This document shows positions 21,839-46,658 of a DNA stretch of 64,000 nucleotides, piece by piece. This DNA comes from an uncultured archaeon. GTDB taxonomy: Archaea; Aenigmatarchaeota; Aenigmatarchaeia; CG10238-14. Below the pieces are notes generated by a model. The model was not told where the DNA came from, did not search any database, and saw nothing but the letters and a program-made list of their open reading frames with translations. The DNA lies in the NCBI GenBank assembly GCA_964373575.1, contig CAYJVB010000001.1:8262-72261 (forward strand). The letters run 5' to 3'. Both the position numbers and the translations under genes were made by a program. Each line of letters starts with the position of its first letter. Within the stretch, counting starts at the first letter, position 1.

Positions 21839-21839
21839 T

Positions 21840-22864: not shown

Positions 22865-24319
22865 CTAAACGCTCTTCAACAAACTATATTTTTCCTTGAG
22901 CACCATAATCCTAGTTATCTTTTCTTTTATCAACTCTTTTGAAATTTCTCCAGAATTAATCATAGATACAATAGTCGAATATGCCGCATTAGCATTAGAA
23001 GAAGAGCTAAACAACAGTATATCAACATTTGTCGCAGCCCTTTTTACCATTTCTTCAAATGTTATTCCTAAATGTGTATTTTTGCCTGTAAGCGAATCTG
23101 ATATTAACACAGCATTTGGTGATATTTGTCTAGCCCGGTTTGTTAATGTGGGTGAAAAAACAGCTAAATTATTAGGATCAATATTTGTGTAAACTATGTT
23201 ATTCATCATTATCATATCCAAATCATTTGACAATCCAGCATAAGGTTTTATATCACTATTTTCCAAATCCTGCATAGTTCTGCTATCTGTTGCTTTCTGA
23301 AAATCACTATTGTCCATCTGATTCCCATAACCTGGGAAATGTTTTCCTGTAGCTATGACACCCTCATCATGAAGACCTTTAGCAAAAGCCCTGCCTATAG
23401 TCTCAACATTTGCAGGATTTCCGGAAAAAGATCTTTCTTGATTATATATTAATCCAGACAAGGATACATCCAACACAGGCGCAAGATTGGTATTTAGATT
23501 ATGTTGTTTCATTTCTATTGCGATATCCTTCGCATGATTCTCAATATCTAATATACTCATAGTTCCAGATGTATACCTACTTCCAATATCCCTCGCAGAA
23601 ATTCTTCCAGGATTAAAATCTTTAGGCATTCTTCTAACCAATCCACCTTCTCCATCTGTAGCAACAAAAGGCCATATCTGCACATTGTTTATTACAGTAG
23701 GTATAGGAGAGAAACCGGCTTGTATATTAGAAGCAAACAAATAATAATTTTTATATTTCGTTCCATCAGGTGTAGACATTATCATTTGTTCCACCAATTG
23801 CTCAGTAGTCATTCCATTAACCAGATTAACAGCTAATGAAGGGATAGTTGTTGTAGTTGTAGCAACTGGAATTGTAGTAGTCGTTTCTTCAGTTGGTAAA
23901 GTAGTTGTTGTACTTTTTTTTATCACCTCTTCAGAGAATAATAAAACCTTTCTTTCATACCCATCATATCTTACTTTAATTTGGTATTGTTTGTTCGCAT
24001 CAATTTTTTTGAATTTAATATCCACAAAATCTCTTTTCACTTTTTCTAAATCCTGTTCTATGCCCTTGTCAGTCGAAATAGCTTTAATGACAAAACAGTC
24101 ATCTACAATGCTATCGCTACCAGAATTATGCTTACTCCAGCACAAGTTAGAGCATGTTACAAGATTCTGTACTATTAGCTCTGAGGCCGTATTCTGATCC
24201 AGGTAACATATCTTTGGAACCGTCTGCCAACTAATAGTAATCAAAACAATAACTGTGAATATTGGAACAACAATAAGCAATAACCCAACAACATTTTTTT
24301 CAACAGACAACAGCACCAC
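22865..24319 (-). CDS. Membrane-anchored glycoside hydrolase family 3 (NagZ-like beta-N-acetylglucosaminidase) behind a poly-Thr linker
   Basis: N-terminal TM. Linker TTTTLPTEETTTTIPVATTTTTIPS. GH3 N-domain motifs NLAPVLDV, KHFPGYGN...DSR and VLISDSL (compare NagZ: PVLDL, KHFPGHG..DSH, SDDL). Confidence 0.55.
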   Translation of the reverse strand: MVLLSVEKNVVGLLLIVVPIFTVIVLITISWQTVPKICYLDQNTASELIVQNLVTCSNLCWSKHNSGSDSIVDDCFVIKAISTDKGIEQDLEKVKRDFVDIKFKKIDANKQYQIKVRYDGYERKVLLFSEEVIKKSTTTTLPTEETTTTIPVATTTTTIPSLAVNLVNGMTTEQLVEQMIMSTPDGTKYKNYYLFASNIQAGFSPIPTVINNVQIWPFVATDGEGGLVRRMPKDFNPGRISARDIGSRYTSGTMSILDIENHAKDIAIEMKQHNLNTNLAPVLDVSLSGLIYNQERSFSGNPANVETIGRAFAKGLHDEGVIATGKHFPGYGNQMDNSDFQKATDSRTMQDLENSDIKPYAGLSNDLDMIMMNNIVYTNIDPNNLAVFSPTLTNRARQISPNAVLISDSLTGKNTHLGITFEEMVKRAATNVDILLFSSSSNANAAYSTIVSMINSGEISKELIKEKITRIMVLKEKYSLLKSV

Positions 24320-26345
24320 CCGAACCAGTGACTATAGGAATTATCAATTGTTGGAATGCAATCAATGCTATAACACTAACAGCGCCATAAACCATCATCC
24401 CAGTCATGAGACTCTTCGCTATTAAATAATTTCTTGAAGTTTCATCAAACCCATTCTCAATCCCATTAAGCAATATTGAAAAAATAGTAATGATCTCCAC
24501 AGTATAAATTCCAATAATTATTTGCAACACGGTCATAGGCATTACTTGCGTAAAATTCCCAACAAGGTCATTCAGAATGCTTCCAACACTAGCTGTTGCA
24601 CTTTGAACAAATGCTACACTAAAAGATCTTTCAATCTGTTGCAACTGGCACGAAAGTGTCCTCAGCATATTAAGAAAAAATATACCCAAAACTCCTGTCA
24701 TGGCACAAACAAGTGGCACAACAAAGGTACTCTCCAGTCTAGCACTCGCCCTTACATCCTCCAGCAATTCTTTTATCTTAGCTTCAATATTGTTTAAATT
24801 TTCCAGATACGATCCGATTGTCTTAGCAACATTTCCTAATAGAACAGAACTTTTTGATGAGGCATCACCCAAGATCCTCATTATCTCTTCAATAAGAACC
24901 GAGGGAAAAAATCTAATCAATCCATCTTTGCCAAAAATTGCATTCATAAAATCCGTGCCTAGGTTTTTCATTTTGTTATACAGTTGCGAAAAGAAATTGT
25001 AAGTGGGATTCTTCTGTAGCCCTAGTTTTTCATATTCATCCAAGCTCTTCTCAATACCCTTTTCAATAGGATAACCCTCAGAGAGGAAATTGCCTAAAGT
25101 ATACAAACCCAACTGGAAATCATTTTCAATGCCCTTTATCTGATTTCTGATATTAATTCTAGGAGCACTTTTCATGTAGAAATACAAAAAGAAGAATACT
25201 GCAACGCCGAATGTCACAGAAAATGTAGAGACCAAATTTTCCAGACTAAACTCAGCCTCCTTTTTCAGCATATCAAGCTTCACTCCTTCACTGGCCACCG
25301 ATAAGTTAGAATACAGATCAACAAAATGCAGGACACCATAAACCATTATCAGCAACGACACTACAACAGCAGCAGGCGCAATTGGTATCAAAACAGTTTT
25401 TGTAGATAACCTCAACGGATATCTATTTGTCGGAGGTAGTTGTGGATGTTTGGAAATATCCGGAACCATAAATGCAGATGGTCTCTTGAGTATTATCCTG
25501 TTTACAAGAAACAGCAGCAGCAAAGGCAGTACAACTGTATAACCAATTCCTAAATAAAATGGATTAATAGAGTTATGCAGAAACATTGAAATCAAGGGAA
25601 ACATTATTATTCCCATAACAGGCAGCAGTATTCCAAGAAAATACAAAATATTGATAGGCCCGTTAATATCCTCAACATAAGTCTTCATCTTCCTTTCCGT
25701 GCTTGTCAATAGAAAGTTAAGTGATTTCATCAAAATCCTTTCCCTCTCACCCTCGGATGGTTCAACCAGAATATTGTACAAAAGCGTAATCGATCTTACA
25801 AAATCCTCATTCCACACCCTCCACTTGGCCATATAAACTGCTAGCGCATCCTCAATTGTGTTATATCTCCCTATCTGCAGATCCCACATTACCTTTTTTA
25901 TATCCTTTGACAACGGCCCTTTAGAATGAGCTGCAGCAAAATTCATTGCGCCTTCAAAATTCGGATGCAGTTTAAGGTAGATTACCATATAGAGAATGAT
26001 CTTTATTGATTCGTCGCCTGTTTGTATTCTCAGTACTTGAGACATGAATCTCGGATAAGTGAATACCAGATAGCTTGTAATGGCTGGGATAAGAAGAAGA
26101 AACGGCAATGCACGCAAGTTATTTGCTATCAATGCAAAACTAGCGAATGCTATCGAAAGCAACAAGAATGTTAAAATTGTGGCTGATACAACACCTCTTG
26201 TGGAAACATTGAGTGTTGAAAATACAATATCCTCTTTCAACTGTCTACTTGATTTCTTCGGTAGATCGAGACCCAACACCTCACTATATCTACACAGCTT
26301 CTCAAAACCACTCTTAGCTTCCTTCGCTTCCTTCTCTTGAAACAA
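24300..26345 (-). CDS. TadC/FlaJ/GspF-like polytopic membrane platform protein of a type IV pilus-like system (paralog 1)
   Basis: 681 aa. Cytoplasmic helical domains alternate with TM clusters. Region-by-region similarity to the 39151..41196 protein (VMWDLQIGRYNTIEDALAVYMAKWRVWNEDFVRSI versus ILWDVHTRRYSSVEEALQDFGDKWKVQNEEFTRSL). Architecture matches the T2SS-F / archaeal FlaJ family. Confidence 0.6.
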   Translation of the reverse strand: MFQEKEAKEAKSGFEKLCRYSEVLGLDLPKKSSRQLKEDIVFSTLNVSTRGVVSATILTFLLLSIAFASFALIANNLRALPFLLLIPAITSYLVFTYPRFMSQVLRIQTGDESIKIILYMVIYLKLHPNFEGAMNFAAAHSKGPLSKDIKKVMWDLQIGRYNTIEDALAVYMAKWRVWNEDFVRSITLLYNILVEPSEGERERILMKSLNFLLTSTERKMKTYVEDINGPINILYFLGILLPVMGIIMFPLISMFLHNSINPFYLGIGYTVVLPLLLLFLVNRIILKRPSAFMVPDISKHPQLPPTNRYPLRLSTKTVLIPIAPAAVVVSLLIMVYGVLHFVDLYSNLSVASEGVKLDMLKKEAEFSLENLVSTFSVTFGVAVFFFLYFYMKSAPRINIRNQIKGIENDFQLGLYTLGNFLSEGYPIEKGIEKSLDEYEKLGLQKNPTYNFFSQLYNKMKNLGTDFMNAIFGKDGLIRFFPSVLIEEIMRILGDASSKSSVLLGNVAKTIGSYLENLNNIEAKIKELLEDVRASARLESTFVVPLVCAMTGVLGIFFLNMLRTLSCQLQQIERSFSVAFVQSATASVGSILNDLVGNFTQVMPMTVLQIIIGIYTVEIITIFSILLNGIENGFDETSRNYLIAKSLMTGMMVYGAVSVIALIAFQQLIIPIVTGSGGAVVC

Positions 26346-26442: not shown

Positions 26443-27330
26443 ATGTCCAATTATCGTCTGCTTATACTTTTGGCAGTAATAATCTTTCTTTCAGGCTGCA
26501 CTACTCAGAACGGTGGGCAAACTTATAATAATGAAGTTATAAAAGTTGATGTTGAGGCCCCGCAAAAAGTTTTGCCAAATCAAAACATAGACATAACATT
26601 ATCAATATCAAACACTAACGCAAATCCAGTTTCAAATCTAGATGTTGTAATGACAGATACTTATGGCCTAGATATTGCAAGCATAAATTGCGATCGTGGT
26701 ACAAAAATAGACGGTGGTTGTCATTTCGATTCAGTTGCTGGCTTTGAAAATTTAAGAATAAACTATAAAACCGGAGTACCTAGCACATACGTCACAGGCG
26801 CTACAAGCGTTCAAGTAAATCCAGAAATAACAATAACTTATGATTATTCCGGGCAGACAGTATGGACTATACCGATAGTGAAAAAGAATTACGCGGGCAC
26901 TATTAGCACAAAGCCGCCCACGTCAACTGCAGGTCCGATACAGGCTACTATACAACGAGGCTTAGACGAGAGTAGTCAAGAACAAACCGATAGATTAGCG
27001 GAAGACGGCTATCTATTCATTACCATAACATTAAATGACGCATTAGGCAATCCTATAACAATAACCAAAGATAATTTATGGGTAAAACTCATCAATTTAG
27101 ATATAGACAAAAGTACTAGTGAAAATGTCTGTGATTTTCAGGGAACTCCTGTTAAACTAACTCCTTTAAAAGATGTAGTAATTCCATATGACCCAACATT
27201 AGAATGTGGTTTGCGGGCTAAAAGTGTATTGCAAGAAGATCTAGAAAACGCCCAAATTGAGGTTAATTTCAACTATCAATACAAAATAATCAAAAATACA
27301 CCAATGGAAATTCTTGCTAGAAAGAGATGA
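26443..27330 (+). CDS. Putative lipoprotein / surface protein with CARDB-like beta domains
   Basis: Signal peptide with a lipobox-like LSGC (MSNYRLLILLAVIIFLSGCTTQNGG). DITLSISNTNANPVSNLDVVM is a CARDB-like strand pattern. Confidence 0.45.
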   Translation: MSNYRLLILLAVIIFLSGCTTQNGGQTYNNEVIKVDVEAPQKVLPNQNIDITLSISNTNANPVSNLDVVMTDTYGLDIASINCDRGTKIDGGCHFDSVAGFENLRINYKTGVPSTYVTGATSVQVNPEITITYDYSGQTVWTIPIVKKNYAGTISTKPPTSTAGPIQATIQRGLDESSQEQTDRLAEDGYLFITITLNDALGNPITITKDNLWVKLINLDIDKSTSENVCDFQGTPVKLTPLKDVVIPYDPTLECGLRAKSVLQEDLENAQIEVNFNYQYKIIKNTPMEILARKR

Positions 27331-29885
27331 ATATCGTGATAAAAATAATTTTTCAAACACCAACATCAGATCCACCAAAAGATAAACCCGATTCACCAAA
27401 ACCAGAAGAACCAACAAAAGAAGAACCAAAATCAACAAAACCATCAATTGACTGGAGAACTATAATAATTTTTTTATCATCATTAGCAGTAGCAGGTTCA
27501 ACAGTATTTGCAATCTATTATTTCAAACTCATTACCATATTTCTAGATCCCACATTAGTGATGATCGCTTATGGACTGATTTTTCTCACTATTTTTTTTG
27601 GTATAATGGCTTTGTTCAATATTAGTTTCGCAAAGAAAATTTTAATATTGGTAATAGTAGCAGATATTATTTTTGCTTCTTTTTTCATCTTTGTAAGTAC
27701 TGCTTTTGGAAAGGAAGCTGCAGCATCTGCAATATTCTTCTTCAAAAAAGCCACAAAAGACATCGGTAAAAGTTTTTGTTACCTAAAGCCAGAAAACATT
27801 GCTACTGGCGATTATTCTGATTGTCGGGAAGATGAAGTTGAAAAGGAAGGAGAGTATGAAAGCTTAATGGTGGAGTTTGGTACAAAAGAAGGCAATAATT
27901 TAATACCAATATTAAAACCTGAAAAAGGAGAACCCTACACTTTAGATCTAACTTTGTCTAATGTCAATTCTCAGCAAGATATTGTTGTCAAATCCATTAC
28001 CGCATACGCTTCTGTAACACCCTTATCCGCTTTAAATGATCCAGAAAGATTGTCACTCACCAAAACAGAATATCTCGACGAATTTACATTGAAAGCCGGA
28101 AAACAGCAATGGTTAAGAATTAACTTTGATTCAATACCTGAATGTACTAGTTTAATATATTTCCTTACTAGAACAACAACTTTGCAAAAAGGCGGAGGAA
28201 TTTCATACTTCAGAATAATTCCAACACGTCAGGGCTTAGATGAGAAATATTTTGATACTAAATACACTCTACCATCAACAAAAACTGATGCAGGACCCGT
28301 CGATGCTTACGCCTTTGTCTATTCAACACTTCCTAAATTAATAGTAATGGACGAATTACAAGGAAATAGTTTCGATGTAATAATAAAAGTTGCAAACTTA
28401 TTCAAAAAAGGTGTTGCGGGTGTTAAATCTTTAAACTTATCAACGACTTTTGATTATATCACCATCGACAAATGTTCATCGCCAAAAATTCCTGATATAG
28501 AACTCACAAAATGTTCAGAGCAGGAGCAAGAAAACTGCGTTAAGATGAATTTAGAACAGGAAGAAAATTTAGACATCGCTGATACTCTTGAAATCGACTG
28601 CAAGGCAACAATCGATTCTTCAAAATATGATGAGAATGCAGTCACCGGTTGGATTCGTGTATCAACAGAATATGAACATTCAATAGATTCGGAAGATTTC
28701 CCAAGAAAGGCAGTATGTAATAATCCTACAATAATAGGAGGATCCTTTGGTACAGGCGGATGTCCAGAAAACCAGTGCCTGTTGGACAGACCTTCTAAAA
28801 ACAATGTTCAATATCCTTCATGTGGTAATAAAATTATAGTTGAAGGGACAGATCCAACAAAACCAGATTCATGTGACAGCCCGAAAAATATTTACAACTT
28901 CATACACGATAATTCAAAAACAGCATTGGATCCTTATGATGTAGATAATCCACAGCTCAAATCAGAAATAGAAAGTCAACTTACAACAACTAACTTTTTA
29001 GGTTTATCCGTTCGCATTAACAACAAGGTAGTTCCTAAATTAGCAGAAGTTGAAAACATAATTAACTCTAAATATTCGCATAGCGGTACAACATATGAAT
29101 TCCCAAGCGGTACATATACTTTCAAAAATAGCGGTAGCTACAATTTCAGGACAAATGTTAATAACCCAAGCGTTTTGAGTTCTCATTCTTTTGGTACAGC
29201 ATTGGATTTGAATGCAGAAACAAACTGGGGCAATCTTGCTGGTTACTCATGTCAATTTGATATTCCTCCTGAATTAGTTGAGGCGTTCGAATCTATAGGT
29301 TTCAGATGGGGAGGTAGATATTGGCCTCAGTTAGATCCAATGCATTTTGAGTATATACCAAGTTGTATCTCTACGTCGTCAAGTTCTACTGGAGATAATA
29401 CAATTTTAGCAAAATGTCCGAGCCAAGATGAAATAAAACAAAAAATTGCAAGCACAGCAAAATCTATTGGCGTACCAGTAGATATAATGTTAGCAGTATC
29501 TGAAGTTGAATCAGGCTTCTCGCATTGCGATGCATATGGTAATGTAAAAATAGGAAGAGCAGCAGGAGAAGTAGGTTTATTTCAAGTAACACCCGGAACT
29601 GCTGGTTGTTCTAAAGAATATCTTAGAGATCCAAATAACAATATCGAATGTGGTGTTAAAGTTTTCAAAGGAAAACATGATGCTTATTATCCATCAAATA
29701 GCAATGGCGATAAAACAGATCCAAATGATGTAGACTACGATCCTCTTAATTGCGGTTATTACTATCCCGATGAATGGGACAGAGCTATTAGAGGTTATAA
29801 TGGATGGGGCTGTCCTTACGAATCAAATAAAAATTATGTGAATTTAGTTAAAGATCGAGTGCCAAAATACAGCAGTTATAATTAA
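27327..29885 (+). CDS. Membrane-anchored bifunctional murein hydrolase: VanY/M15-type D-Ala-D-Ala (or L-Ala-D-Glu) peptidase domain plus a lytic transglycosylase (SLT) domain
   Basis: Pro/Lys/Glu-rich N-terminus, then about 4 TM helices. M15 motifs SHSFGTALDLNAE and DPMHFEY (~29170..29350). SLT motifs SEVESGFS ... GLFQVTPGTAG (~29440..29700). Confidence 0.6.
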   Translation: MNIVIKIIFQTPTSDPPKDKPDSPKPEEPTKEEPKSTKPSIDWRTIIIFLSSLAVAGSTVFAIYYFKLITIFLDPTLVMIAYGLIFLTIFFGIMALFNISFAKKILILVIVADIIFASFFIFVSTAFGKEAAASAIFFFKKATKDIGKSFCYLKPENIATGDYSDCREDEVEKEGEYESLMVEFGTKEGNNLIPILKPEKGEPYTLDLTLSNVNSQQDIVVKSITAYASVTPLSALNDPERLSLTKTEYLDEFTLKAGKQQWLRINFDSIPECTSLIYFLTRTTTLQKGGGISYFRIIPTRQGLDEKYFDTKYTLPSTKTDAGPVDAYAFVYSTLPKLIVMDELQGNSFDVIIKVANLFKKGVAGVKSLNLSTTFDYITIDKCSSPKIPDIELTKCSEQEQENCVKMNLEQEENLDIADTLEIDCKATIDSSKYDENAVTGWIRVSTEYEHSIDSEDFPRKAVCNNPTIIGGSFGTGGCPENQCLLDRPSKNNVQYPSCGNKIIVEGTDPTKPDSCDSPKNIYNFIHDNSKTALDPYDVDNPQLKSEIESQLTTTNFLGLSVRINNKVVPKLAEVENIINSKYSHSGTTYEFPSGTYTFKNSGSYNFRTNVNNPSVLSSHSFGTALDLNAETNWGNLAGYSCQFDIPPELVEAFESIGFRWGGRYWPQLDPMHFEYIPSCISTSSSSTGDNTILAKCPSQDEIKQKIASTAKSIGVPVDIMLAVSEVESGFSHCDAYGNVKIGRAAGEVGLFQVTPGTAGCSKEYLRDPNNNIECGVKVFKGKHDAYYPSNSNGDKTDPNDVDYDPLNCGYYYPDEWDRAIRGYNGWGCPYESNKNYVNLVKDRVPKYSSYN

Positions 29886-30790
29886 TTAGGAGAAACAATA
29901 GAGCAAATATCATTATTTGACATTATTACAAAATCATTTGAACATTTAACAACGCTAGGTAAATCTTCTGGTTTATATTTAGAGCCGGTAGCAATTTTTT
30001 CAACTAAAAACTTCACTCCTATTACACTTTCTGTTCTAGAATTTGTTTCAGAATCATATAGCCAATATTTTCCTTTTTCACTAATAACAACCTTAACATA
30101 ATCTAACCTATCTGTTAATTCTATTGCTATTCTATCATTTTCCAATTCACCTTTGATTTCATTCAAATCCTCACCAGAATTTATTTTGTTAATTACTTTT
30201 TCTGCAACATTCAAAATTTCAGCAAAATTTGTTTTCAAATGTGTTTTAATCGAAAATTCTTTAGATATCTTAAAAGGACTTTCATCATAAGTTATTGTAA
30301 CCGAACCCAGATCAACTGAAATTTCTTGCAATTCAAATACACCCACCGCATTTTTCTCATTCCAATCTAAAGACCAATATTTCGATCTACTTCTATCACT
30401 AAAAAATTTAATATAGTCGTTGAAGTAATTTTTGAAGTATGATTTTGATAAATCAGCAATATTTTGTTTAATTTCGTCTCTCGGAACGCTTTTCCAATAT
30501 GGCAATCGTTCTACAAGATTAAACTCAATTGAATTAGTTTTAGTTACCGAAATTTGCCCAATGTCTTTTACTGTCTGCAAAGTAGCCAAATCACCCGCCA
30601 TTTGTATCATTTTTCCTGTAGTTTCTAGTCTATTCCCCTCTTGCAGAATTTTTTCTTGAAACGACCTTTTTTCAATAATAATTTTCGTTCCAAAGAAGAA
30701 CAAAGCTCCTACCACAGCAAGTACTAACATAATAGCTATCCCAACTACAAAAAACCCCTTTTTATTGCTCGCCATTTCGTATCTAATCAT
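29882..30790 (-). CDS. Pilin-like protein (class III N-terminus); last gene of the minor-pilin operon
   Basis: MIRYEMASNKKG|FFVVGIAIMLVLAVVGALFFFG. Confidence 0.45.
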   Translation of the reverse strand: MIRYEMASNKKGFFVVGIAIMLVLAVVGALFFFGTKIIIEKRSFQEKILQEGNRLETTGKMIQMAGDLATLQTVKDIGQISVTKTNSIEFNLVERLPYWKSVPRDEIKQNIADLSKSYFKNYFNDYIKFFSDRSRSKYWSLDWNEKNAVGVFELQEISVDLGSVTITYDESPFKISKEFSIKTHLKTNFAEILNVAEKVINKINSGEDLNEIKGELENDRIAIELTDRLDYVKVVISEKGKYWLYDSETNSRTESVIGVKFLVEKIATGSKYKPEDLPSVVKCSNDFVIMSNNDICSIVSPN

Positions 30791-31259
30791 AAGTCGAAAA
30801 TTCCCCCGGAATTACGAAATTTCTACCATCATAAATTTGTGGAAACACAAAAGTTGTTCTAAAGTTATATTTTCCTGTTACAAAATTTCGTTTGCTATTG
30901 CAGGAAACGTCATGACCACCAGAAATAACATGATCTCTGTCATTTTTTATACCTCCAAGCAAAAATTTATAGCAGGTCGAAGAAGCTAATTTATTCATAG
31001 TTTCTTCTAATTCTGTTGAAGTTTGCACCTCATCCTTCACTAAAGCAACAGCCAAATTGTCGTTATTTAAATAATATCTTGAATTTACAATTGCAAGCGG
31101 TATTAAACTGTTCTGACTTAAAGTTATTGTCTGCTCTCTGGCAACTGTTATGGTATATGTAAAAAGGTAAACAAATATGACAAGTGAAATAGCTGCAAAA
31201 ACTAGAAAAATGTTTATTGCTAATAGAGTTGCAATTCCCTTAGAATCCATCCGGAACAT
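30783..31259 (-). CDS. Pilin-like protein (class III N-terminus)
   Basis: MFRMDSKG|IATLLAINIFLVFAAISLVIFVYLF. It overlaps its neighbours by 8 and 20 nt, which indicates operon coupling. Confidence 0.45.
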   Translation of the reverse strand: MFRMDSKGIATLLAINIFLVFAAISLVIFVYLFTYTITVAREQTITLSQNSLIPLAIVNSRYYLNNDNLAVALVKDEVQTSTELEETMNKLASSTCYKFLLGGIKNDRDHVISGGHDVSCNSKRNFVTGKYNFRTTFVFPQIYDGRNFVIPGEFSTYD

Positions 31260-32076: not shown

Positions 32077-32527
32077 TAATTTCCACCTTCAATTTGTTAA
32101 TAGAATATTCTTTTCTGATTTTTACATCAAAAAAATTCTCAATTTTATCGGGTGCAGTGAAATCAACTCCAGAGCTCGATGAAGTTTTCTTGAAAAGGTT
32201 TTCCAGTTCTTCTTGATTAAATCCTAATGGCAATGATGTAGCTCCCTGTTCTGCATCTATAAAAACCATTCTTCTACCAAATAACGCCGTATAAAAAAAT
32301 TTTGTTGCTGGTTTTAAATAAATTATTTCAACAGAACCCGGAACACCAGCGGATACAGTAATAAGCTCGCTTAAACCATCACTTACAGCCTCTGAACTTC
32401 CTTTGACAAAAAAGTAAGTGAATACGGCAACACCTTCGAGTATTTTACCGGCCATCATTAAGGTAATAATAAAAATACCGATCGTAATTAAGATAAAATT
32501 TAACGCCTCTTTACCCATTCCAAACAC
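32069..32527 (-). CDS. Possible pilin-like/membrane protein in the pilin operon
   Basis: MFGMGKE|ALNFILITIGIFIITLMMAG hydrophobic N-terminus. Coupled to its neighbours. Confidence 0.35.
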   Translation of the reverse strand: MFGMGKEALNFILITIGIFIITLMMAGKILEGVAVFTYFFVKGSSEAVSDGLSELITVSAGVPGSVEIIYLKPATKFFYTALFGRRMVFIDAEQGATSLPLGFNQEELENLFKKTSSSSGVDFTAPDKIENFFDVKIRKEYSINKLKVEIIE

Positions 32528-33200: not shown

Positions 33201-33239
33201 TTAAGAATAGATTTTTGTGGTTATTTATTTTATCTTGAG

Positions 33240-33542
33240 TTAAACATCTTCGCAATCTATAATTGCACCACCTGAAGAACCAGGTTTGCATACTGCCTCG
33301 TTATCACAAAAATCTCCTCTACCACCAAAATTACCACTACATTTTCCATCTGTATCAGAAAAATCTTTTGGAAAATCTCCTGTTTGTAAAGTACACCACT
33401 CAGCTAACAACGCTTTACATCCATTGAAAGCAACAGAATCTCTAAATGGTCCCAATCCAAGATATAATAAACTTACAATAACACCAAGAACTATTAACGC
33501 TAAAATAATCTTAACAATCGTTTCTTGAGCCATTCCTTTCAT
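33240..33542 (-). CDS. Small pilin (100 aa). It is the best candidate for the major pilin or a pseudopilin subunit.
   Basis: MKG|MAQETIVKIILALIVLGVIVSLLYLGLG is a class III signal with Glu at +4 and a hydrophobic helix, followed by a short Cys-containing head. Confidence 0.5.
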   Translation of the reverse strand: MKGMAQETIVKIILALIVLGVIVSLLYLGLGPFRDSVAFNGCKALLAEWCTLQTGDFPKDFSDTDGKCSGNFGGRGDFCDNEAVCKPGSSGGAIIDCEDV

Positions 33543-33604
33543 TGTACCACTAAACTAGATTTGATTTTTTTCTATATTAATCTTTCCTATCACTCAGAAA
33601 TCCG

Positions 33605-33763
33605 TTAAAATATGTTTTCCAAACCCTTCTTAATGGTTTCTATAACTTTTGTGATTAAGTCGGGTGCAGATTTTGACAAAATAAACAGCGTTACAACTAG
33701 TAAAACTAAAAACACTATCCCAACAACTAATAAAACTAGAATTTTTTGGCTTTCTTCTGGCAT
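33605..33763 (-). CDS. Small membrane protein of 52 aa (MPEESQKILVLLVVGIVFLVLLVVTLFILSKSAPDLITKVIETIKKGLENIF). It is the first gene of the pilin operon and is not in the ORF track.
   Basis: Clean ATG...TAA ORF on the minus strand with a single TM helix. The plus-strand ORF 33612..33821 over the same DNA looks less plausible. Confidence 0.3.
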   Translation of the reverse strand: MPEESQKILVLLVVGIVFLVLLVVTLFILSKSAPDLITKVIETIKKGLENIF

Positions 33764-33789
33764 TGTACTAGCCCACCACATCTATCATT

Positions 33790-33905
33790 CTATCTCTAAA
33801 GTATACTTCACTTGGAGTTAAATATCCTAGTGCTTGATTCTTTTGTAATTGTAATATGTCACAAATCCATTCAATGTCTTGAATTTGTTGTCTTCTTCTT
33901 CATAA
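33790..33905 (-). pseudogene. Remnant of an integrase/transposase (rve-type DDE) C-terminus; degraded mobile-element scar
   Basis: The minus-strand frame translates to ELVKKIVIRWYRTYEEEDNKFKTLNGFVTYYNYKRIKH*. This resembles the conserved C-terminal FN..L..FI.YYN..R.H tail of IS3/IS481/retroviral-type integrases, but it is bounded by stops and no full ORF exists. Confidence 0.3.
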
Positions 33906-34142
33906 GTCCTATACCATCTGATGACGATTTTTTTCACTAATTCTTAAATGACTAGCAATCGTATAATTAGTCTACCATCAATTTTCTTTTCATAATCAAT
34001 CTTCTCTATCTTAATTCTCTACCCACAATATCGCCCCCTGTTTAATTGTTATAATAGGAGTGACTTATGTTATAGGACAGCACAAAATTTTCATGAACCC
34101 AATAAACTTAAATAATAATATGAGCCATTCTTTTTGATATAA

Positions 34143-34529
34143 ATGTTTCAAGATCCAAAAACAAGAGAATATATAAAAATTGAACCAAATTTGCTTTATA
34201 GAACTGATGAAGCAGCTGCTTTTTTAAAAGTTGAACCTGGTACAGTCAGGGTTATGATAAGAGATGGAAGATTAGATGCCACATATTTAGGAAGATATCG
34301 TGTTTTAGGTCAAACTTTATTGAATATGACAGAATATGCTCCTCCGATAGATGTTCTATATACTCCAGAAGAAGTCGCCGCATATCTAAGATACAGAACA
34401 CGTACTATACATGCTATGATAAGAAATGGGAGATTGAAAGCAGTTGATATTTCAGGAGGCGGAAAACCTCGTTATAGAGTCTGGAAAAAAGACATTCAAG
34501 CATTATTAACCAATTATTCAGTTAAATAA
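34143..34529 (+). CDS. Protein with two tandem excisionase-family (HTH_17/MerR-like) DNA-binding domains
   Basis: Internal repeat: AAAFLKVEPGTVRVMIRDGRLDATYLGRYRV versus VAAYLRYRTRTIHAMIRNGRLKAVDISGGGKPRYRV. This is the pattern of Xis / helix-turn-helix_17 domains. Confidence 0.5.
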   Translation: MFQDPKTREYIKIEPNLLYRTDEAAAFLKVEPGTVRVMIRDGRLDATYLGRYRVLGQTLLNMTEYAPPIDVLYTPEEVAAYLRYRTRTIHAMIRNGRLKAVDISGGGKPRYRVWKKDIQALLTNYSVK

Positions 34530-34557
34530 TAAAAAGCAAAAGAAACCTCTTATATTT

Positions 34558-35166
34558 TCAATACCGTCTATATTTTTCTTTAAGTTTCGTAAATTTATCA
34601 TCTTTTTTCTTTAGTCTCCAAACATAAATAACAACAGCACTTACAATCCCAACAATTGAAAATATAATGAGAGTTTTCATGTTACCGGGTTTTATAATTG
34701 TTGTGGTAGTCGTTATAGATACACATTCTTTCGGGCAAATAAGTTCAGATTCTCCCCTATCAGATTCACAAATATTATTCTCATTGCAGATGTAACCCGA
34801 AAGCTCAACCTCTTTTATAACCGTATCATTATGCAAAAATCTGATAGTTCTATATTCATCATTCCACGGTATTCTATGATACGCTCGCGAATAATTCACT
34901 TCACCAACTTCAAACTTATAGAAAACGACAGGAATCGTCAACGCCACTAAAGTGTTATTTCCTTCTCCTCTAATAAATAACTGATACTCCTCCGTTCCAG
35001 GTGTATAAAATACTGTTCCATTAGAATATTTTATATCAACTATCTCAATAGAATCATCTATGTATATAACATAATTCAAAATCAAAATCGGTTCTGCATA
35101 TGATATTTGTAACAAAAACAACAAACTAAATAGCAGACTAACAAAAACAATGATAAATTTAGTCAC
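34558..35166 (-). CDS. Secreted protein with a C-terminal TM anchor (202 aa); function unknown
   Basis: Sec signal MTKFIIVFVSLLFSLLFLLQISYA. C-terminal TTTTIIKPGNMKTLIIFSIVGIVSAVVIYVWRLKKKDDK. Confidence 0.45.
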   Translation of the reverse strand: MTKFIIVFVSLLFSLLFLLQISYAEPILILNYVIYIDDSIEIVDIKYSNGTVFYTPGTEEYQLFIRGEGNNTLVALTIPVVFYKFEVGEVNYSRAYHRIPWNDEYRTIRFLHNDTVIKEVELSGYICNENNICESDRGESELICPKECVSITTTTTIIKPGNMKTLIIFSIVGIVSAVVIYVWRLKKKDDKFTKLKEKYRRY

Positions 35167-37642
35167 AATAACCAGCCTCTCTAATTCTTACCAATATAGA
35201 ATTATAACCTTCCGAGCCAAATTTAACCGGATTTCCCACCATAATATAATTACCTTGACTATCTCTATACATATTTCCCCCACCACCCATTATATCTGTA
35301 TCATATGGTGGAGAGTTACCACCTATTTTCTTTCCACATGTTCCAAGATCGCAAGCAGTGTTATCAACACTGCAATCTGTATCACATTTATCATCTGGAC
35401 CTATTCCATTATCTAATGGATATGGGTTCCCACAACTAGAAAAAGGTTGAGATTCTTTCAGAATACCAAAATTCTTAAAACGAACATTTTGTCCTTCCCA
35501 AGTAAATCTATCATATTCATCGCATAACTTAAATTTATGTCCAATTTCATGCGCAGGACAAGTTCTATCAAGACCTTCAGGTAAACCACCGAAGCACATA
35601 GCAAAAGGTAACACCATATCTGCAAACCCATTTACTATAGGATCATCACTAAGTGCAAATACTAAATCATGATCATTTAAACCCATATTTTCAACACACT
35701 GTAAAACTTCTTGTTCGCAAATGTCCCATGTAGAATCATAATCACTTAAATCGGGGCATTGACAATTCTGATCTAAAATCCTTATGTCAATTCCATTTCT
35801 GCATTCTCTGAAAGGAGATTCTTCCAAAAATGTATTCATCCTATCTTGAGCTCTTTTTCTATATGCATTCATGTCGTCATAATTCACAGCAACAACATAA
35901 ATTCTATAACGATTAGCTAATTTTATTATATTTCCAGTATATTCAGCTTTATTAGAGTTACCCGCCTTATCGCCAGCAATTGTTACAAGTTTGTATTCCC
36001 CCACTCGGTTCAATATAAAGGAGCCAGTACAACTTACAAGGAAACTTACTCTATTATGACCTATTGATGCAGCTAAATCCAAACTATCACAATCTAGATC
36101 TTGACTATAATACCGAGCTCCATTTTGTTCTATGTACATTTCTATAGAATCTTTATCAAGGTTCACATCTTCATCATAGATTAGAGCTTTAGCAATAATA
36201 GGCGAGTTTGTGTAACCAAAAGTTGGTATAGTATACGCATCTATGACAGGCAAGTTATCGTCCGGTAATATTGTAACAGAAGTTTCAATATTATTTTCCT
36301 TTGTAGTTTCAAATCCAGACTGACTTCTGCAGGAAATGTAGTATTTTTTCTCTTCCACCATTCCATTGTTTAGGCCAAAACATAGTATATAATCCGAAAA
36401 TGTTGTTGTATTAGGGTATAAATTATCTTGAGTGACGAGATTGAAATTATCATAATTGGGGCAATCCAAAGTCATCTCATCGAAATTTAGATCTCTATCC
36501 GATATCCTACAAATTGAATTTTCTGAAGGAATAACCCGAATCATAGGATTTAATTGTTTTGTGCTGGAAGGACTATCAATAGATGCAAAACATTTAACAT
36601 CGGGTTTATTATCATATGTAATCTCTTCTTCACAAACTGGACAACTTTTTGTTGTCAAGACATTATAAGTACAAGATTTGTCAGAAGCAAAACACCCATA
36701 AAGCCTTCTTTCTGCTGTATAATCATTGGCACAAAACCACCCATTACTAGATGTACATGATTCAGGACACGAAATTATTTCTCTGTCTTTACACCCAGGA
36801 TATTCAGATAGGTCATAATCATAATAAGCTGGATTATCTTGCCAACTTATTTTATCATCGTCATTCAAATCACAATCATATGGAAAACAGTTATCTGCTC
36901 CTGAGTCATAAGTATCGTCAAATATGTTATAATCTAACTTATCCCTTATACCATCCACATTTATATCAGGACAAGCACCTATAGGACAATTTGAGAATTC
37001 TGAAGCCAATTTTCCTAAGTTATCTTCAACCCATTGACGGTCTTCTTCATCTACAATTCCATTATTATCAAAATCACAATCAGTTACCCATGCAGCAGCA
37101 CAATACGACTCCCCTAAACTATATCTAAGATCATCAACATCTTTCTGATCTATTAACCCATCTCTATTTCCGTCAGGACAATCAAATTCCAATTTTGGTT
37201 CAATAGTTAGACTTATAACATTACTCTCAAAATCAAGCTTCTCTTCTCTTACGTTGTATCCTCCAACAAGTCTAAGCTGATAATCACCACTTTCTTTTAT
37301 ACAGTCTGAAATTCTGAATTCTCCCTTTATGGCTCTTTCTCCTTTGACAATCACGAAATCTCCAATTTTATAAATTTTACAAAATTTCCATTCTTCATTA
37401 GAACTTGCCTTTCTATACTGAACTCCAAGCTGATAATCTTTTTCTGCCAAAAAAGCTTCAATTCTGTCAGTGAAATCAAATTCAAAAGTAAAAAAATCTT
37501 TCAGACTACCTTTTGTTCTTAACCCAAGAGTTGGTTCTGCAGCTTGCAGTGTATCTAATAGAATAACTGTTACAAGAATCGTAGCTAACAACACAACACA
37601 AAATTTTGTTTTATTCACGTAATCCTCCTCTAAATGTTTCAA
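35159..37642 (-). CDS. Secreted zinc metalloprotease (HExxH) with multiple Ca2+-binding Dx[DN]xDG (thrombospondin-type-3/dockerin-like) repeats
   Basis: Signal peptide. Repeats DCPDGNRDGLIDQKDVDD, DCDFDNNGIVDEED and CPDINVDGIRDKLD. C-terminal HEIGHKFKLCDEYD zincin motif. Confidence 0.55.
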   Translation of the reverse strand: MKHLEEDYVNKTKFCVVLLATILVTVILLDTLQAAEPTLGLRTKGSLKDFFTFEFDFTDRIEAFLAEKDYQLGVQYRKASSNEEWKFCKIYKIGDFVIVKGERAIKGEFRISDCIKESGDYQLRLVGGYNVREEKLDFESNVISLTIEPKLEFDCPDGNRDGLIDQKDVDDLRYSLGESYCAAAWVTDCDFDNNGIVDEEDRQWVEDNLGKLASEFSNCPIGACPDINVDGIRDKLDYNIFDDTYDSGADNCFPYDCDLNDDDKISWQDNPAYYDYDLSEYPGCKDREIISCPESCTSSNGWFCANDYTAERRLYGCFASDKSCTYNVLTTKSCPVCEEEITYDNKPDVKCFASIDSPSSTKQLNPMIRVIPSENSICRISDRDLNFDEMTLDCPNYDNFNLVTQDNLYPNTTTFSDYILCFGLNNGMVEEKKYYISCRSQSGFETTKENNIETSVTILPDDNLPVIDAYTIPTFGYTNSPIIAKALIYDEDVNLDKDSIEMYIEQNGARYYSQDLDCDSLDLAASIGHNRVSFLVSCTGSFILNRVGEYKLVTIAGDKAGNSNKAEYTGNIIKLANRYRIYVVAVNYDDMNAYRKRAQDRMNTFLEESPFRECRNGIDIRILDQNCQCPDLSDYDSTWDICEQEVLQCVENMGLNDHDLVFALSDDPIVNGFADMVLPFAMCFGGLPEGLDRTCPAHEIGHKFKLCDEYDRFTWEGQNVRFKNFGILKESQPFSSCGNPYPLDNGIGPDDKCDTDCSVDNTACDLGTCGKKIGGNSPPYDTDIMGGGGNMYRDSQGNYIMVGNPVKFGSEGYNSILVRIREAGYCD

Positions 37643-38663
37643 CTAGTTCTGAACCAAGTTTAGTAACTACAAAAGTAAATGGAAATGTGACAAGATCATC
37701 AGTTTTCTTAGGTAATAGAGCAGTTGTTATTTTATATTTGCTATCGCAAAATGTCATCTCCATATCACTATCGCTCGAACAAAATTCTTTTTGTTCCGGA
37801 ACTGGTTTATTTCCACATTTAAAATTGAGTTTAATCAAATAATCTTCTGAATTCGTGCAACCGTCGGGATAGACATCTTTTATTAAAACGCCATCATTCA
37901 GCCCTAAAGGATAAAATTCATTTAATTTTAAATTCATAGTTTTTTCAACATTCTGTTCAATATTTCTATCAGAATAAAAATCAAAAACTATTAATGATTC
38001 ATCAACGTTAGTTACAAAAGTTATAGGAATTGACTCTTCAATGAATTTTTGTTTTATTGCATCATAATAAAATGGGTTTGAATCACCAGATATTAATATA
38101 GTCTCCGACCCTCTTATTTTTACACCTTCTACACCACATTGAGACGGATCACTTCCATACTCATCAGTAACAATATTGTCAGTTACTACTATCGTATTTG
38201 GCTGAAGTAATCCTTTAAACATATTAGATAGAGCCAGATAATCAAGTGCGCCAGCAGTAGACGTTTCAATACATTGATAATTTTCTCCTAAATTGGATTT
38301 TTCAATCCATGAATCCTTATTGTCTAATTGCACGATTATAGGAAACTGAAATCCACAAATCCTATCACTACCAATAAAATTAATTATTTCAGGATTGCAA
38401 TAATTGCTACATCTAAAATCAGAAGCGTCATCTTTTATATTTTTTACTTCATCACTATCACACCCATAATAACATCTGGCCATAACACACTGAGCTGCTA
38501 GTTCTGCAACACTCGTTCCCTGAAAGCATTTAAATGGGTCTTCTTTAACACAGGGATTATTTCCTAAAATTGATAAAAAAGCAACTAAAGCAAGAATTAC
38601 AAAAACAGCAACTAGAAAATACATAACTAACTTGCTTGTACCTATATCAGAATTTCCTTTCAT
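37611..38663 (-). CDS. Membrane-anchored/secreted Cys-rich protein (350 aa)
   Basis: MKGNSDIGTSKLVMYFLVAVFVILALVAFLSILG N-terminal anchor and about 16 Cys. Its ATG overlaps the stop of the upstream micro-ORF (ATGA). Confidence 0.4.
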   Translation of the reverse strand: MKGNSDIGTSKLVMYFLVAVFVILALVAFLSILGNNPCVKEDPFKCFQGTSVAELAAQCVMARCYYGCDSDEVKNIKDDASDFRCSNYCNPEIINFIGSDRICGFQFPIIVQLDNKDSWIEKSNLGENYQCIETSTAGALDYLALSNMFKGLLQPNTIVVTDNIVTDEYGSDPSQCGVEGVKIRGSETILISGDSNPFYYDAIKQKFIEESIPITFVTNVDESLIVFDFYSDRNIEQNVEKTMNLKLNEFYPLGLNDGVLIKDVYPDGCTNSEDYLIKLNFKCGNKPVPEQKEFCSSDSDMEMTFCDSKYKITTALLPKKTDDLVTFPFTFVVTKLGSELVETFRGGLRE

Positions 38664-38788
38664 TTTATCACTTTACTAAACCAGTCAATAATATTATTGA
38701 ATAAACCATATGAACTTCCAATAAAAATTAGTAATATAGTTAAAATAATCAGTGCAATTATCAATCCAACAATAAATTTAGTCTCCAT
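38660..38788 (-). CDS. Micro-ORF of 42 aa, single TM (METKFIVGLIIALIILTILLIFIGSSYGLFNNIIDWFSKVIK); not in the ORF track
   Basis: Clean ORF. Its TGA overlaps the ATG of the 37611..38663 gene. Confidence 0.3.
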   Translation of the reverse strand: METKFIVGLIIALIILTILLIFIGSSYGLFNNIIDWFSKVIK

Positions 38789-38995
38789 TCAACCACATTT
38801 ACAATCCATGAAAACTCCTATTACGCCTAAAGTGCCTTGCATAGATTCGCATAGCTTACAACCAACTTCATCTACAAATTTTTTTCCACCTTCCGTTGCA
38901 TTGTTCAAAAAAATCCATAATAAAACCAATCCAAGCATAGCTACTATTAACGATATTACTATTACCAATGTATGTCCACTTATACCTTTTTTCAT
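38789..38995 (-). CDS. Small pilin-like protein (68 aa) with four Cys
   Basis: MKKG|ISGHTLVIVISLIVAMLGLVLLWIF, then CKLCESMQG...CKCG. The ATG overlaps the TGA of the upstream micro-ORF (TGATGA). Confidence 0.45.
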   Translation of the reverse strand: MKKGISGHTLVIVISLIVAMLGLVLLWIFLNNATEGGKKFVDEVGCKLCESMQGTLGVIGVFMDCKCG

Positions 38996-39150
38996 CACGA
39001 CACCTTCAACAAATTTCTGAAAACATCTCTTAGCGATTGGACAAACGATTCCAATTGTTCTCTAAATATAACTATGATTGAAACTAGAAAAAGAGTTACT
39101 ACTATGAGCATTATCACAGTTGTTATCACCTCTCTGGATACTCCTTTCAT
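38995..39150 (-). CDS. Micro-ORF of 51 aa with a class III-like N-terminus (MKG|VSREVITTVIMLIVVTLFLVSIIVIFREQLESFVQSLRDVFRNLLKVS); not in the ORF track
   Basis: Its ATG directly follows the TAG of the TadC-like gene (TAGATG), so it is translationally coupled. Confidence 0.4.
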   Translation of the reverse strand: MKGVSREVITTVIMLIVVTLFLVSIIVIFREQLESFVQSLRDVFRNLLKVS

Positions 39151-41196
39151 CTAGACACCAATATCTGAAATCAAGCGTCCTAGAACAAAGAATATAATCA
39201 ATACAGTAGCTGTAAATATCAATGCACCTCTCATCAAGCTTGTAGCTATAGAATATTGAATTTCTATATTGTCATCTCCCTTTTCAATTCTAACCGAAAA
39301 AACGCTAAGAGAAATCAGAACTTCTATCATATAAATACCAACAACTATCACAAAAATTTCTAGCGGCATTATGTTTTCAATCGATAAAGGTAAATTTTTG
39401 ACATCTTCTATAGGAAAAGATTTGAATAAATCGCTAATATAAATCAAAATTCTTACTAATATTCCACCTAGTCCAACAACAGCTCCAGCAGCCAATGGCA
39501 CTAGAACTATTGACATAATCTTCATCGATGAGATAACATCCTCCAAAATATCTTTCAAATTCTGGCTTACAGTTTGAATTCCTTTCAAATAATCCGAAAC
39601 AGCTATCAACGTCGTCGCAGCAATACCCATTCCTTTTGTCGTCGACTCAACAGTTATCCTCATCGTATTCTTAATCAAAGCCGACGGGTATTCATTTATC
39701 AACCCAACATCTTTATTGAACACAGCTTCTTTAAGAGTCAGTCCCATTTGCGATATCCTGTACAACAATTTCTCGAAAAACACATGAATCTTCTCATTCT
39801 TCACCTTTTCAGTAACTTTCTTTAATGAGTTCTCCAATGGCTGTCCCGATCTTAAAACAGTTCCAAGAATGAACATAGCATCCCCAAAATCTCTCTCAAC
39901 ACCCTCAATTTCTTCTTTGATTTTTTTATTTTTGTTGCTTGAAAAGAAAGTGTAAAACACAATAGCAATTATTAAACCCCAAAAAATACCTAACGAAGCA
40001 AACAACTTATCGTCAAGAGTTATACCTTCACTGGGATTAAATAAAGTCACCAATCCAAAACTTGATACCAATAAGAAAAACATTGCAGCAATAGGAACTA
40101 ACGGAATCTCTATCTTATTTTTACCAATAAATATAGCAGCATTCCCCGGTTTTGCAGCTTGAGGATGATTATATATATCGGGAACATAAAATCCATACGG
40201 CCTCTTCTCCAACTGATTTTTCATTAACCACAAAACAAGAAACGGCAGTATCAAATCATATAAACCAACAAGCACATATATCTTTGCCGTCTTCCCCAGA
40301 ACCAGCGTGACAATAGGAAACAAAATCAATGTTATAACAGGCAATAAAATCCCTAGCGCATGTATAGTTGTTATTGGCGCCTTCAACTCTCTAGAATATT
40401 CCTTCATCCTCTCCAAATTCGATTCAAGTATGAGTTTTACAGCATTATCAATAGTTTTATCTCTATTAACAGGTTCTAACAAAGAAGTTGTTAACATATC
40501 TAATGATCTAGTAAACTCTTCATTCTGAACCTTCCACTTATCTCCAAAATCTTGCAACGCCTCCTCAACACTAGAATATCTCCTAGTATGAACATCCCAC
40601 AGAATCTTTCTCAAATCCTTCCCTACAGCCCCAGGTAAATTAACAGCAGCGAACGTAACAGCATTTTCTAAATTAGGCGTATTCCTCAAGCCAATTGCAA
40701 TATACAAAACCGCAAGAACAAGTTCAGATGAAGCCCCCACTCTTACCTTTTTAGAATAGCTATTAGGATACGTCAGCAAGTAATATGAAAATGCAAAACC
40801 AACCATTGATTCCAGCAACAAATACGGTAGTATTTTCCCAAACGTTATTCCAGCTGATAAAATAAAAAACAACCCCGCCGATAGAAACATTGCAATTACT
40901 GTAGCTATCAATCCAAAAACAAAAGTTGAATAAACAGTATAAGGTTCTACATTAAGATTAGAAAAATTCAGTTTAGCATACAAATCTTTTTCTTTCTCAT
41001 CACTTATTTTTATCCTAATTAAATTTCCAGAAAATGCACACAATTTCTCATACCAATTTCTTTTCTCAGATTCTGTTTTGATGTATTCTAAAAAATCCTG
41101 TGACAGTCTTTTCCCAACAACATTGACAAAATCATCGTATAACTTGTCTAATTCTCTCTTCATCCTAACCACGTATTTGCCTTCTAAGCCAGTCAT
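39151..41196 (-). CDS. TadC/FlaJ/GspF-like membrane platform protein (paralog 2), immediately downstream of the ATPase
   Basis: 681 aa, the same length and domain order as the 24300..26345 protein. It overlaps the ATPase gene by 32 nt. Confidence 0.6.
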   Translation of the reverse strand: MTGLEGKYVVRMKRELDKLYDDFVNVVGKRLSQDFLEYIKTESEKRNWYEKLCAFSGNLIRIKISDEKEKDLYAKLNFSNLNVEPYTVYSTFVFGLIATVIAMFLSAGLFFILSAGITFGKILPYLLLESMVGFAFSYYLLTYPNSYSKKVRVGASSELVLAVLYIAIGLRNTPNLENAVTFAAVNLPGAVGKDLRKILWDVHTRRYSSVEEALQDFGDKWKVQNEEFTRSLDMLTTSLLEPVNRDKTIDNAVKLILESNLERMKEYSRELKAPITTIHALGILLPVITLILFPIVTLVLGKTAKIYVLVGLYDLILPFLVLWLMKNQLEKRPYGFYVPDIYNHPQAAKPGNAAIFIGKNKIEIPLVPIAAMFFLLVSSFGLVTLFNPSEGITLDDKLFASLGIFWGLIIAIVFYTFFSSNKNKKIKEEIEGVERDFGDAMFILGTVLRSGQPLENSLKKVTEKVKNEKIHVFFEKLLYRISQMGLTLKEAVFNKDVGLINEYPSALIKNTMRITVESTTKGMGIAATTLIAVSDYLKGIQTVSQNLKDILEDVISSMKIMSIVLVPLAAGAVVGLGGILVRILIYISDLFKSFPIEDVKNLPLSIENIMPLEIFVIVVGIYMIEVLISLSVFSVRIEKGDDNIEIQYSIATSLMRGALIFTATVLIIFFVLGRLISDIGV

Positions 41197-46649: not shown

Positions 46650-46658
46650 GGTGAAAAA

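Follow-up and report, generated by a model that had tools for sequence, protein, structure and literature searches.

An uncultured member of the Aenigmatarchaeota, a tiny symbiotic archaeon of the DPANN group, encodes two ancient, full-length, paralogous pilus assembly platforms and a single assembly ATPase in a 64,000-nt stretch of contig CAYJVB010000001.1 (the whole of which is referred to here as the window). Both platform genes, A (24300..26345) and B (39151..41196), lie on the minus strand, each in an operon of its own, and the ATPase gene adjoins B. The reading we favor, which we hold at about even confidence, is that both platforms are functional and that the one ATPase most likely powers them in alternation, each platform handling its own cargo.

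As a first-pass annotation of the window had proposed, A and B are collinear paralogs. BLASTP aligned the two open reading frames (ORFs) end to end over 678 columns (E 8e-98) with 51% positives and 29% identity, which is slightly lower than the 30–35% the annotation had estimated by eye. The identical length it remarked on (681 codons each) is real but coincidental because the extensions and insertions of the two proteins differ: in the alignment, B has ~35 additional N-terminal residues relative to A, whose own additions are two insertions (~17 and ~14 aa) and, at the C-terminus, a longer tail that ends in a conserved Cys.

The label "TadC/FlaJ-like" given by the same annotation is right at the superfamily level, where both sequence and fold support it. 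T2SSF (PF00482) matched the C-terminal domain of B (residues 444-570) at 26.5 bits against a gathering cutoff of 25.2, and the N-terminal domain of A (residues 119-250) at 21 bits, which is under that cutoff; across the family, 19 of 35 members were matched at E<=0.01 (best 1.5e-9). When compared with the PDB, the family profile found the cytoplasmic domain of GspF/EpsF (E 0.0044), a phmmer search with B returned nothing specific, and no NCBIfam model matched either protein. Alignment of the N-half profile to the C-half profile using hhalign gave an E of 4.3e-4 over 158 columns, so each protein is a complete platform with both T2SSF-like repeats in tandem and not half of one. A and B are polytopic and helical by hydropathy and in AlphaFold2 models generated with a 35-sequence alignment, which were confident and presented the same topology and helix order (B, pLDDT 82.9 and pTM 0.78; A, pLDDT 80.8 and pTM 0.78); in these models, the predicted cytoplasmic-domain fold agrees with solved PilC/GspF domains. 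An exhaustive profile search collected 1516 cluster representatives at E<=1e-3, 642 of them at E<=1e-30, which by sequence delineate a large family of platforms of 650-750 aa. A and B are thus complete, highly diverged platforms of the PilC/TadC/FlaJ superfamily.

A borderline Pfam score and the lack of the N-terminal ~35 residues present in most of its orthologs could be taken to mean that A is a decaying pseudogene or non-functional remnant. We find it scarcely credible that either copy is, as both ORFs run uninterrupted over their 681 codons, the AlphaFold2 model of A is confident, and A is better conserved across the phylum than B (mean within-clade identity of 59% versus 45%). Furthermore, 72 invariant columns are common to 12 aligned A- and B-type sequences, and all 13 columns that are invariant in the family have been kept in both proteins.

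The split between A and B, judged from sequence, is clearly ancient and predates the radiation of the sampled Aenigmatarchaeota, as the two fall in separate, well-supported clades that are never exclusive sisters. In a neighbor-joining tree (Kimura distances, 641 trimmed columns, 100 bootstraps), the A-clade and the B-clade were each recovered in 98 of 100 bootstraps and an exclusive A+B grouping in none. Mean identity was 28% between A and B, 29% between A and other platforms, and 28% between B and other platforms. The first-pass annotation had suggested synteny in related genomes as a means of telling which copy is ancestral, and a family phylogeny besides; a conserved layout and separate clades were found, but the backbone of the tree is star-like, so it supports the separation of the clades only and leaves aside the ancestral copy, the exact age and the choice between duplication and ancient DPANN transfer.

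The layout is conserved across the phylum: ATPase, B, a pilin array, an opposite-strand pair (a 295-aa gene, p295, and a hydrolase), A and a second pilin array follow each other in this order, flanked by housekeeping genes, in at least nine other Aenigmatarchaeota genomes. The order is kept in L001/L003 (L-numbers label homologous loci in other genomes) and, by tblastn mapping, with orthologous pilins on each side, in L005, L007, L008, L009, L018, L026 and L032; it is kept but stretched in L019/L036, where 32 kb separate A from the upstream ATPase. L001, a 780-kb contig of GCA_017880035.1, illustrates both halves: an intein-free ATPase (749 aa), B (50% identity) and eight pilin-like genes are followed by an opposite-strand 692-aa M23 hydrolase with a 279-aa gene, then A (53%) and seven pilin-like genes. 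In distant Aenigmatarchaeota with the same order, B is ~50% and A 50-58% identical, and A orthologs across the phylum range from 50 to 77% identity. Homologs of A and B were also located on the same contigs, 12-13 genes apart, as QXJ06_00390/_00455, QXZ43_02680/_02740 and QW350_01540/_01600. A profile scan of GTDB species representatives using a 12-sequence alignment yielded 30 loci, among which all taxon-named records are Aenigmatarchaeota, and homologs with a named source are nearly all from Aenigmatarchaeota metagenome-assembled genomes (MAGs). In the window, the supercluster spans ~6.6-47.8 kb (~41 kb). Downstream of 47.8 kb lie housekeeping genes, including a diphthine-synthase-like TP_methylase, TRM5/TYW2, a VTT protein and CysRS, and an archaeal signal recognition particle RNA is found at 54808..55080; since the ATPase-side housekeeping flank is the same in two other genomes, the region is chromosomal.

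An alternative raised by the first-pass annotation was a duplicated module captured from a mobile element, with an excisionase and transposase scar lying between the two halves. In this reading, taken further, half of the region, with one platform gene, would have been captured recently, and the excisionase gene and transposase scar would mark the junction. Both features do lie between the paralogs, although inside the B-side pilin array and not at a module junction. The excisionase-family gene encodes two helix-turn-helix (HTH) repeats, and the scar is a relic in two adjacent frames, ...FVTYYNYKRIKH and QALGYLTPSEVY, that together resemble the C-terminal end typical of rve DDE transposases; once joined, the peptide matched rve_2/rve_3 at E ~2e-3, which is below threshold. 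The two closest relatives, L005 and L026, have both paralogs and are without the ~3.5-kb block comprising the HTH gene, the relic and the 827-aa and 202-aa genes. The HTH gene had no homolog at the related loci, and in L021 the counterparts of the 827-aa and 202-aa genes stand downstream of A. No convincing terminal or flanking repeats were detected near the HTH gene and relic, which are the only signs of an integrated element, and GC content is even (30-41% along the whole window, with no step). On viral contigs, neither A nor B had a relative, and the only plasmid matches were PilC-like genes of haloarchaea at 25% identity. The block is therefore a secondary, lineage-specific insertion or rearrangement and not the origin of the duplication. 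Taken with the phylum-wide order between the same housekeeping flanks, and with two 98% clades that are as far from each other as from outside platforms, this makes recent capture highly improbable, and we regard it, together with pseudogenization, as effectively excluded.

The ATPase has recognizable motifs (Walker A, GGRSSGKSS; Walker B, LIVGEVRS) and is 58-81% identical to its best 120 orthologs; its best functional NCBIfam matches, FlaI and TadA, fall far under cutoff (FlaI, 91 bits versus 550). All-versus-all BLASTP of 60 ORFs, with an additional six-frame tblastn search for the ATPase, identified neither a second ATPase nor a third platform in the 64 kb. The two statements of the first-pass annotation on this point thus hold: the gene is the sole FlaI/TadA-type ATPase in the window and it adjoins the second platform only. 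Translational coupling ties B both to the ATPase gene and to the first pilin gene. A has no ATPase beside it here, and in 13 further A-type loci whose flanks could be read, the 10 kb around A likewise contain no ATPase belonging to it.

These observations bear on the possibility that A is served by its own dedicated ATPase elsewhere in the genome, which would make the system two ordinary ATPase-platform pairs with one of them unlinked. The window is 64 kb of a genome, an A-like relative in L037 directly adjoins an ATPase, and some thermal Aenigmarchaeota MAGs have been reported to contain extra type IV pili genes (Li et al. 2021, PMC8407114). We nevertheless consider an unlinked ATPase doubtful, because none was found in the window or close to A in the other loci, archaeal type IV pilus ATPase and TadC genes have been described as a linked module (PMC4858521), and genomes of the phylum appear small and reduced, the largest contigs here being 0.6-0.8 Mb.

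How A and B would relate to a shared ATPase is informed by relatives in which a platform stands alone. The A-like sister P0131 (L037), which groups with A in 78% of bootstraps, directly follows an ATPase in a compact locus, and a B-side relative from Nanoarchaeota (L035) likewise lies directly beside an ATPase in a compact locus, so it looks as if either type can operate by itself and bind an ATPase of this family. The ATPase-adjoining platform of L012, L014 and L018 belongs to another subfamily (32-35% identity to B); A was found in L018 only (~50% identical), and its retention beside a platform of another subfamily argues against tight co-evolution of A and B. We infer from these two observations that A and B most likely work alternately and not as a heteromer.

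The heteromer, in which A and B would form a hetero-oligomeric platform under one ATPase hexamer (one machine and one fiber, like TadB/TadC or EpdJ/EpdK), is nonetheless a tentative possibility; in a variant, each paralog might bring in its own class of pilin, or assembly might fall to one paralog and disassembly to the other. A and B occur together in every genome contiguous enough to check, and the same invariant residues are found in both cytoplasmic domains of both paralogs. EpdJ and EpdK are both essential for one pilus, and for Tad a split of labor between adding and removing subunits has been put forward (PMC4371748). However, TadB/TadC and EpdJ/EpdK have one T2SSF domain each and are adjacent halves derived from a single platform gene by fission (Denise et al. 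2019, PMC6668835), while A and B each have both domains, lie in separate operons 12.8 kb apart in the window (32 kb in L019/L036) and are not each other's closest relatives, so that this is a true duplication. The stand-alone relatives of each type and the retention of A in L018 also speak against a heteromer.

Under the favored reading of one motor and two platforms, each platform would load a class-III-signal set of its own. In a class III signal, a short charged leader is joined by a [KR]G cleavage motif and a hydrophobic helix, and processing is by a PibD/EppA-type peptidase. Scanning with a home-made motif (FlaFind was not the tool) identified an MKG leader followed by a hydrophobic helix in 17 minus-strand ORFs between 6648 and 39150, which are candidate class-III-signal, pilin-like proteins. 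The B unit reads ATPase, B, a 51-aa ORF, a 69-aa ORF and a 350-aa ORF through to a 302-aa ORF, with genes mostly overlapping or abutting, and ends convergent with the gene of the 852-aa M15_4+SLT membrane hydrolase. Orthologs of its 350-, 229-, 278- and 302-aa ORFs (p350, p229, p278 and p302) come after B in other genomes. Very short Flp-like pilin candidates (51-69 aa) occur in the B unit only, both in the window and in L001, which points to a thin adhesive pilus.

A heads its own minus-strand operon, separated by a 98-bp gap from the divergent p295, and is followed by the glycoside hydrolase family 3 (GH3) fusion, 176-, 136-, 148- and 303-aa proteins, the 1010-aa LamG/Stig1 protein, the 829-aa hydrolase, and 664-, 156- and 689-aa proteins. 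The first-pass annotation had placed A among hydrolase and pilin genes, and this was borne out, with the GH3 gene at its stop codon, the M15+SLT hydrolase upstream on the opposite strand and MKG ORFs downstream. The class-III-signal proteins of this operon are all of the larger kind, and several are fused to GH3, SLT+M23+M14 or LamG domains; such enzyme and adhesin fusions point to a bindosome-like assembly or a second fiber. The GH3 domain is well supported (Glyco_hydro_3, E 2.4e-35; NagZ-like match NF003740). Its ~130-aa N-terminal module comes after A without the enzyme in L015, L016 and L019-L024, and the full fusion was found only in the window and L025. The N-terminus of the 829-aa protein starts MKGDVSEVILTVGILIAVGIALFLL; its ~120 N-terminal residues are kept downstream of A in L019, L021, L022 and L024, and homologs of this N-terminus or of the 303-aa protein are downstream of A in L003, L017, L019, L021, L022 and L024. 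From its MKG start and its domains, the 829-aa protein is predicted to be a pilin-anchored peptidoglycan hydrolase in an archaeon. The pair of p295 and hydrolase holds the same position in L001/L003, L007, L008, L009, L026 and L032, always between the B and A units and on the opposite strand, and the catalytic domain of the hydrolase is swapped among genomes (M15_4+SLT in the window, M23 in L001 at 17365..20293).

A working model can be outlined in which the single ATPase, a hexamer encoded beside B, would serve A and B alternately, and each platform would extract and polymerize the class-III-signal proteins encoded with it. From the short pilins and minor pilins, B would build a thin adhesive pilus, and A may assemble the large class-III proteins into a bindosome-like surface array or a second fiber displaying cell-wall-degrading enzymes. 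The suggestion of the first-pass annotation that two platforms share one motor, perhaps making different fibers, fits all findings, including two intact platforms, separate operons and a B-linked ATPase, but stops short of proof. Several points weigh against it. Binding of the ATPase to A is putative; the ATPase search covered the 64-kb window of an 88-kb contig, and an unlinked ATPase may lie elsewhere; the 17 candidate pilin-like proteins were assigned by N-terminal motif, and no prepilin peptidase was found among the window ORFs scanned. In addition, TadB/TadC and EpdJ/EpdK, where both genes are needed for a single pilus under one ATPase (PMC4371748), set a precedent that would favor one machine over two.

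The known systems closest to the supercluster include the archaeal PilB/PilC modules (type IV pilus ATPase/TadC) catalogued by Makarova, Koonin and Albers (2016, PMC4858521), in which a VirB11/FlaI-family ATPase adjoins a polytopic TadC/PilC-like platform with two domains, and pilins with class III signals come next. That survey presented evidence that such modules can serve different pilin sets, and described loci with two tadC-like genes, one ATPase with two platform genes being noted for many euryarchaeal loci. The window platforms differ in being larger (681 aa) and highly diverged, with no NCBIfam match and borderline Pfam scores, and the system differs in having as second platform a full-length orphan, encoded in a separate operon at a distance of 8-32 kb, and in including murein hydrolases in the cluster. 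Against a Haloterrigena pHTUR04 "secretion system protein", whose gene sits beside a type II/IV ATPase, A showed 25% identity (E 3e-24). Tad (TadA with TadB/TadC) and Methanococcus Epd (EpdL with EpdJ/EpdK) likewise have a single ATPase with two homologous platform genes, and Flp-like pilins that are very short, and the window system may work like them despite its different gene structure: A and B are neither single-domain nor adjacent, nor in one operon.

An archaellum was considered and rejected. Aenigmarchaeota loci have been annotated FlaG/FlaI/FlaJ (PMC8407114), the best named match of the ATPase is FlaI, and the platforms fall in the FlaJ/TadC superfamily. Among the window ORFs scanned, however, Pfam and NCBIfam gave no match for archaellin, FlaH (KaiC-like), FlaF/G or FlaC/D/E/X, the FlaI score of the ATPase is far under its cutoff, and no FlaJ model was matched.

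In the bindosome (Bas) of Sulfolobus, a PilB/PilC-type pair builds a cell-surface assembly from functional non-pilin proteins that carry class III signal peptides. This is probably the closest functional analogue of the A operon, although here murein hydrolases, a glycosidase and adhesins would replace sugar-binding proteins as cargo, and there is no dedicated ATPase. The more striking lead, read from gene content, is the apparent association of the A platform with cell-wall hydrolases anchored by class III signals. One further extension is that the ATPase time-shares between B, which would build a thin Flp-like attachment pilus, and A, which would assemble a surface array or fiber of class-III-anchored SLT+M23+M14 murein hydrolases, a GH3 N-acetylhexosaminidase and adhesins; together with the conserved divergent hydrolase operon, the whole would serve in contact-dependent breaching of bacterial cell walls. 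We consider this unlikely, but if true it would mean that Aenigmatarchaeota have bacteria as host or prey.

To our knowledge, Aenigmatarchaeota lack a cultured host system, and little is understood of the means by which DPANN archaea attach to hosts and exploit them. A ~41-kb cluster kept throughout a phylum whose largest assembled contigs here are 0.6-0.8 Mb is probably central to lifestyle. It also offers a natural test of whether one assembly ATPase can serve two complete platforms and whether the platform chooses the substrate, a question of motor sharing for which full-length duplicate platforms set it apart from Tad and Epd, and the pilin-like N-termini on murein hydrolases are a specific, testable prediction. 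Type-IV-pilus "dark matter" islands of DPANN have been noted in general terms (PMC6393860); in the literature searched, for which coverage was incomplete, no description was found of a two-platform, one-ATPase supercluster or of pilin-anchored murein hydrolases.

Table 1. Positions of the platform genes, the ATPase and associated features in the window.
Feature	Position	Strand	Remarks
Platform A	24300..26345	-	681 codons, TTG start; heads own operon; no adjoining ATPase
Platform B	39151..41196	-	681 aa, ATG start; 32-nt overlap with ATPase gene
FlaI/TadA/VirB11-type (T2SSE) secretion ATPase	41165..44914	-	1249 aa, 741-aa extein; Pfam T2SSE, Intein_splicing, LAGLIDADG_3
ATPase intein with LAGLIDADG homing endonuclease	41786..43309	-	residues S536..N1043, +1 residue T1044
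Five small genes leading away from ATPase	44964..47814	+	two coiled-coil proteins, three paralogous multi-transmembrane proteins
B-side class-III-signal (pilin-like) array, candidate	29882..39150	-	MKG plus hydrophobic-helix N-termini
B-side array genes, first three	38995..39150 (51 aa), 38789..38998 (69 aa), 37611..38663	-	MKG N-termini
B-side array genes, middle	33605..33781, 33240..33542, 32511..33200, 32069..32527	-	MKG N-termini
B-side array genes, last	31240..32076, 30783..31259, 29882..30790	-	MKG N-termini
Lineage-specific insertion in B-side array	33783..37642	.	rve relic, HTH gene, 202-aa gene, 827-aa gene
rve-type transposase C-terminal relic	~33783..33937	-	~50 aa, frameshifted
Excisionase-family HTH gene	34143..34529	+	two HTH repeats; HTH_17, TIGR01764; BldC- and MamR-like
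202-aa gene	34558..35166	-	inside insertion
827-aa gene	35159..37642	-	inside insertion
p295 + hydrolase operon	26443..29885	+	295-aa lipoprotein-like protein; 852-aa membrane protein with M15_4, SLT
GH3 fusion	22865..24319	-	~130-aa module with one N-terminal transmembrane helix + GH3 beta-N-acetylhexosaminidase; 20-nt overlap with A stop codon
A-side array of large class-III-signal proteins, candidate	6648..22781	-	several with enzymatic or adhesin domains
A-side array, A-proximal genes	22251..22781, 21840..22250, 21392..21838, 19621..20532	-	176, 136, 148 and 303 aa
LamG/Stig1 protein, A-side array	16427..19459	-	1010 aa
SLT+M23+M14 murein hydrolase, A-side array	11295..13784	-	829 aa, MKG N-terminus
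A-side array, distal genes	9186..11180, 8711..9181, 6648..8717	-	664, 156 and 689 aa

The ATPase gene is interrupted by an intein, for which both N- and C-terminal intein models matched. Its insertion point lies directly after the Walker B GEVRS, the junction having been set using intein-free orthologs that read GEVRS[KVT]EA. An intein in the L036 ATPase (11624..13138) also follows Walker B and is 50% identical to that of the window, whereas in the closest relative, L005, the intein (~7696..9246) occupies a different site (~residue 480) and is 26% identical; many ATPase orthologs are intein-free. This distribution suggests repeated, independent invasion of the ATPase. The five-gene block that leads away from the ATPase is also found beside it in L001 and L036 and may encode accessory parts of the machine.

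Within the A-side array, two minus-strand tandem paralogs with an N-terminal hydrophobic helix (13788..15269, 493 aa; 15294..15800, 168 aa) share 65% identity over their first ~150 residues, which looks like a recent tandem duplication or truncation. Among platform relatives, the A-type gene of L028 (10031..12089) was recovered in two tblastn segments, representing a frameshift, a pseudogene or an assembly error. In L013 (JAVZYR010000001.1, an Aenigmatarchaeota MAG), a platform of a third subfamily (10001..11923; 57% identity to P0154 and ~30% to A and B) has no ATPase within 10 kb, and orphan platforms may be common in the phylum.

Two further features were observed at the edge of the window beyond the A-side array. 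A free-standing 301-aa ORF (4373..5278, minus strand) encodes a LAGLIDADG_3 domain outside any recognizable intein or intron host gene. At 2304..2410 on the plus strand, a 107-nt tRNA that ARAGORN missed (no tRNA called) was matched by Rfam at 61 bits and is probably an intron-containing archaeal tRNA.

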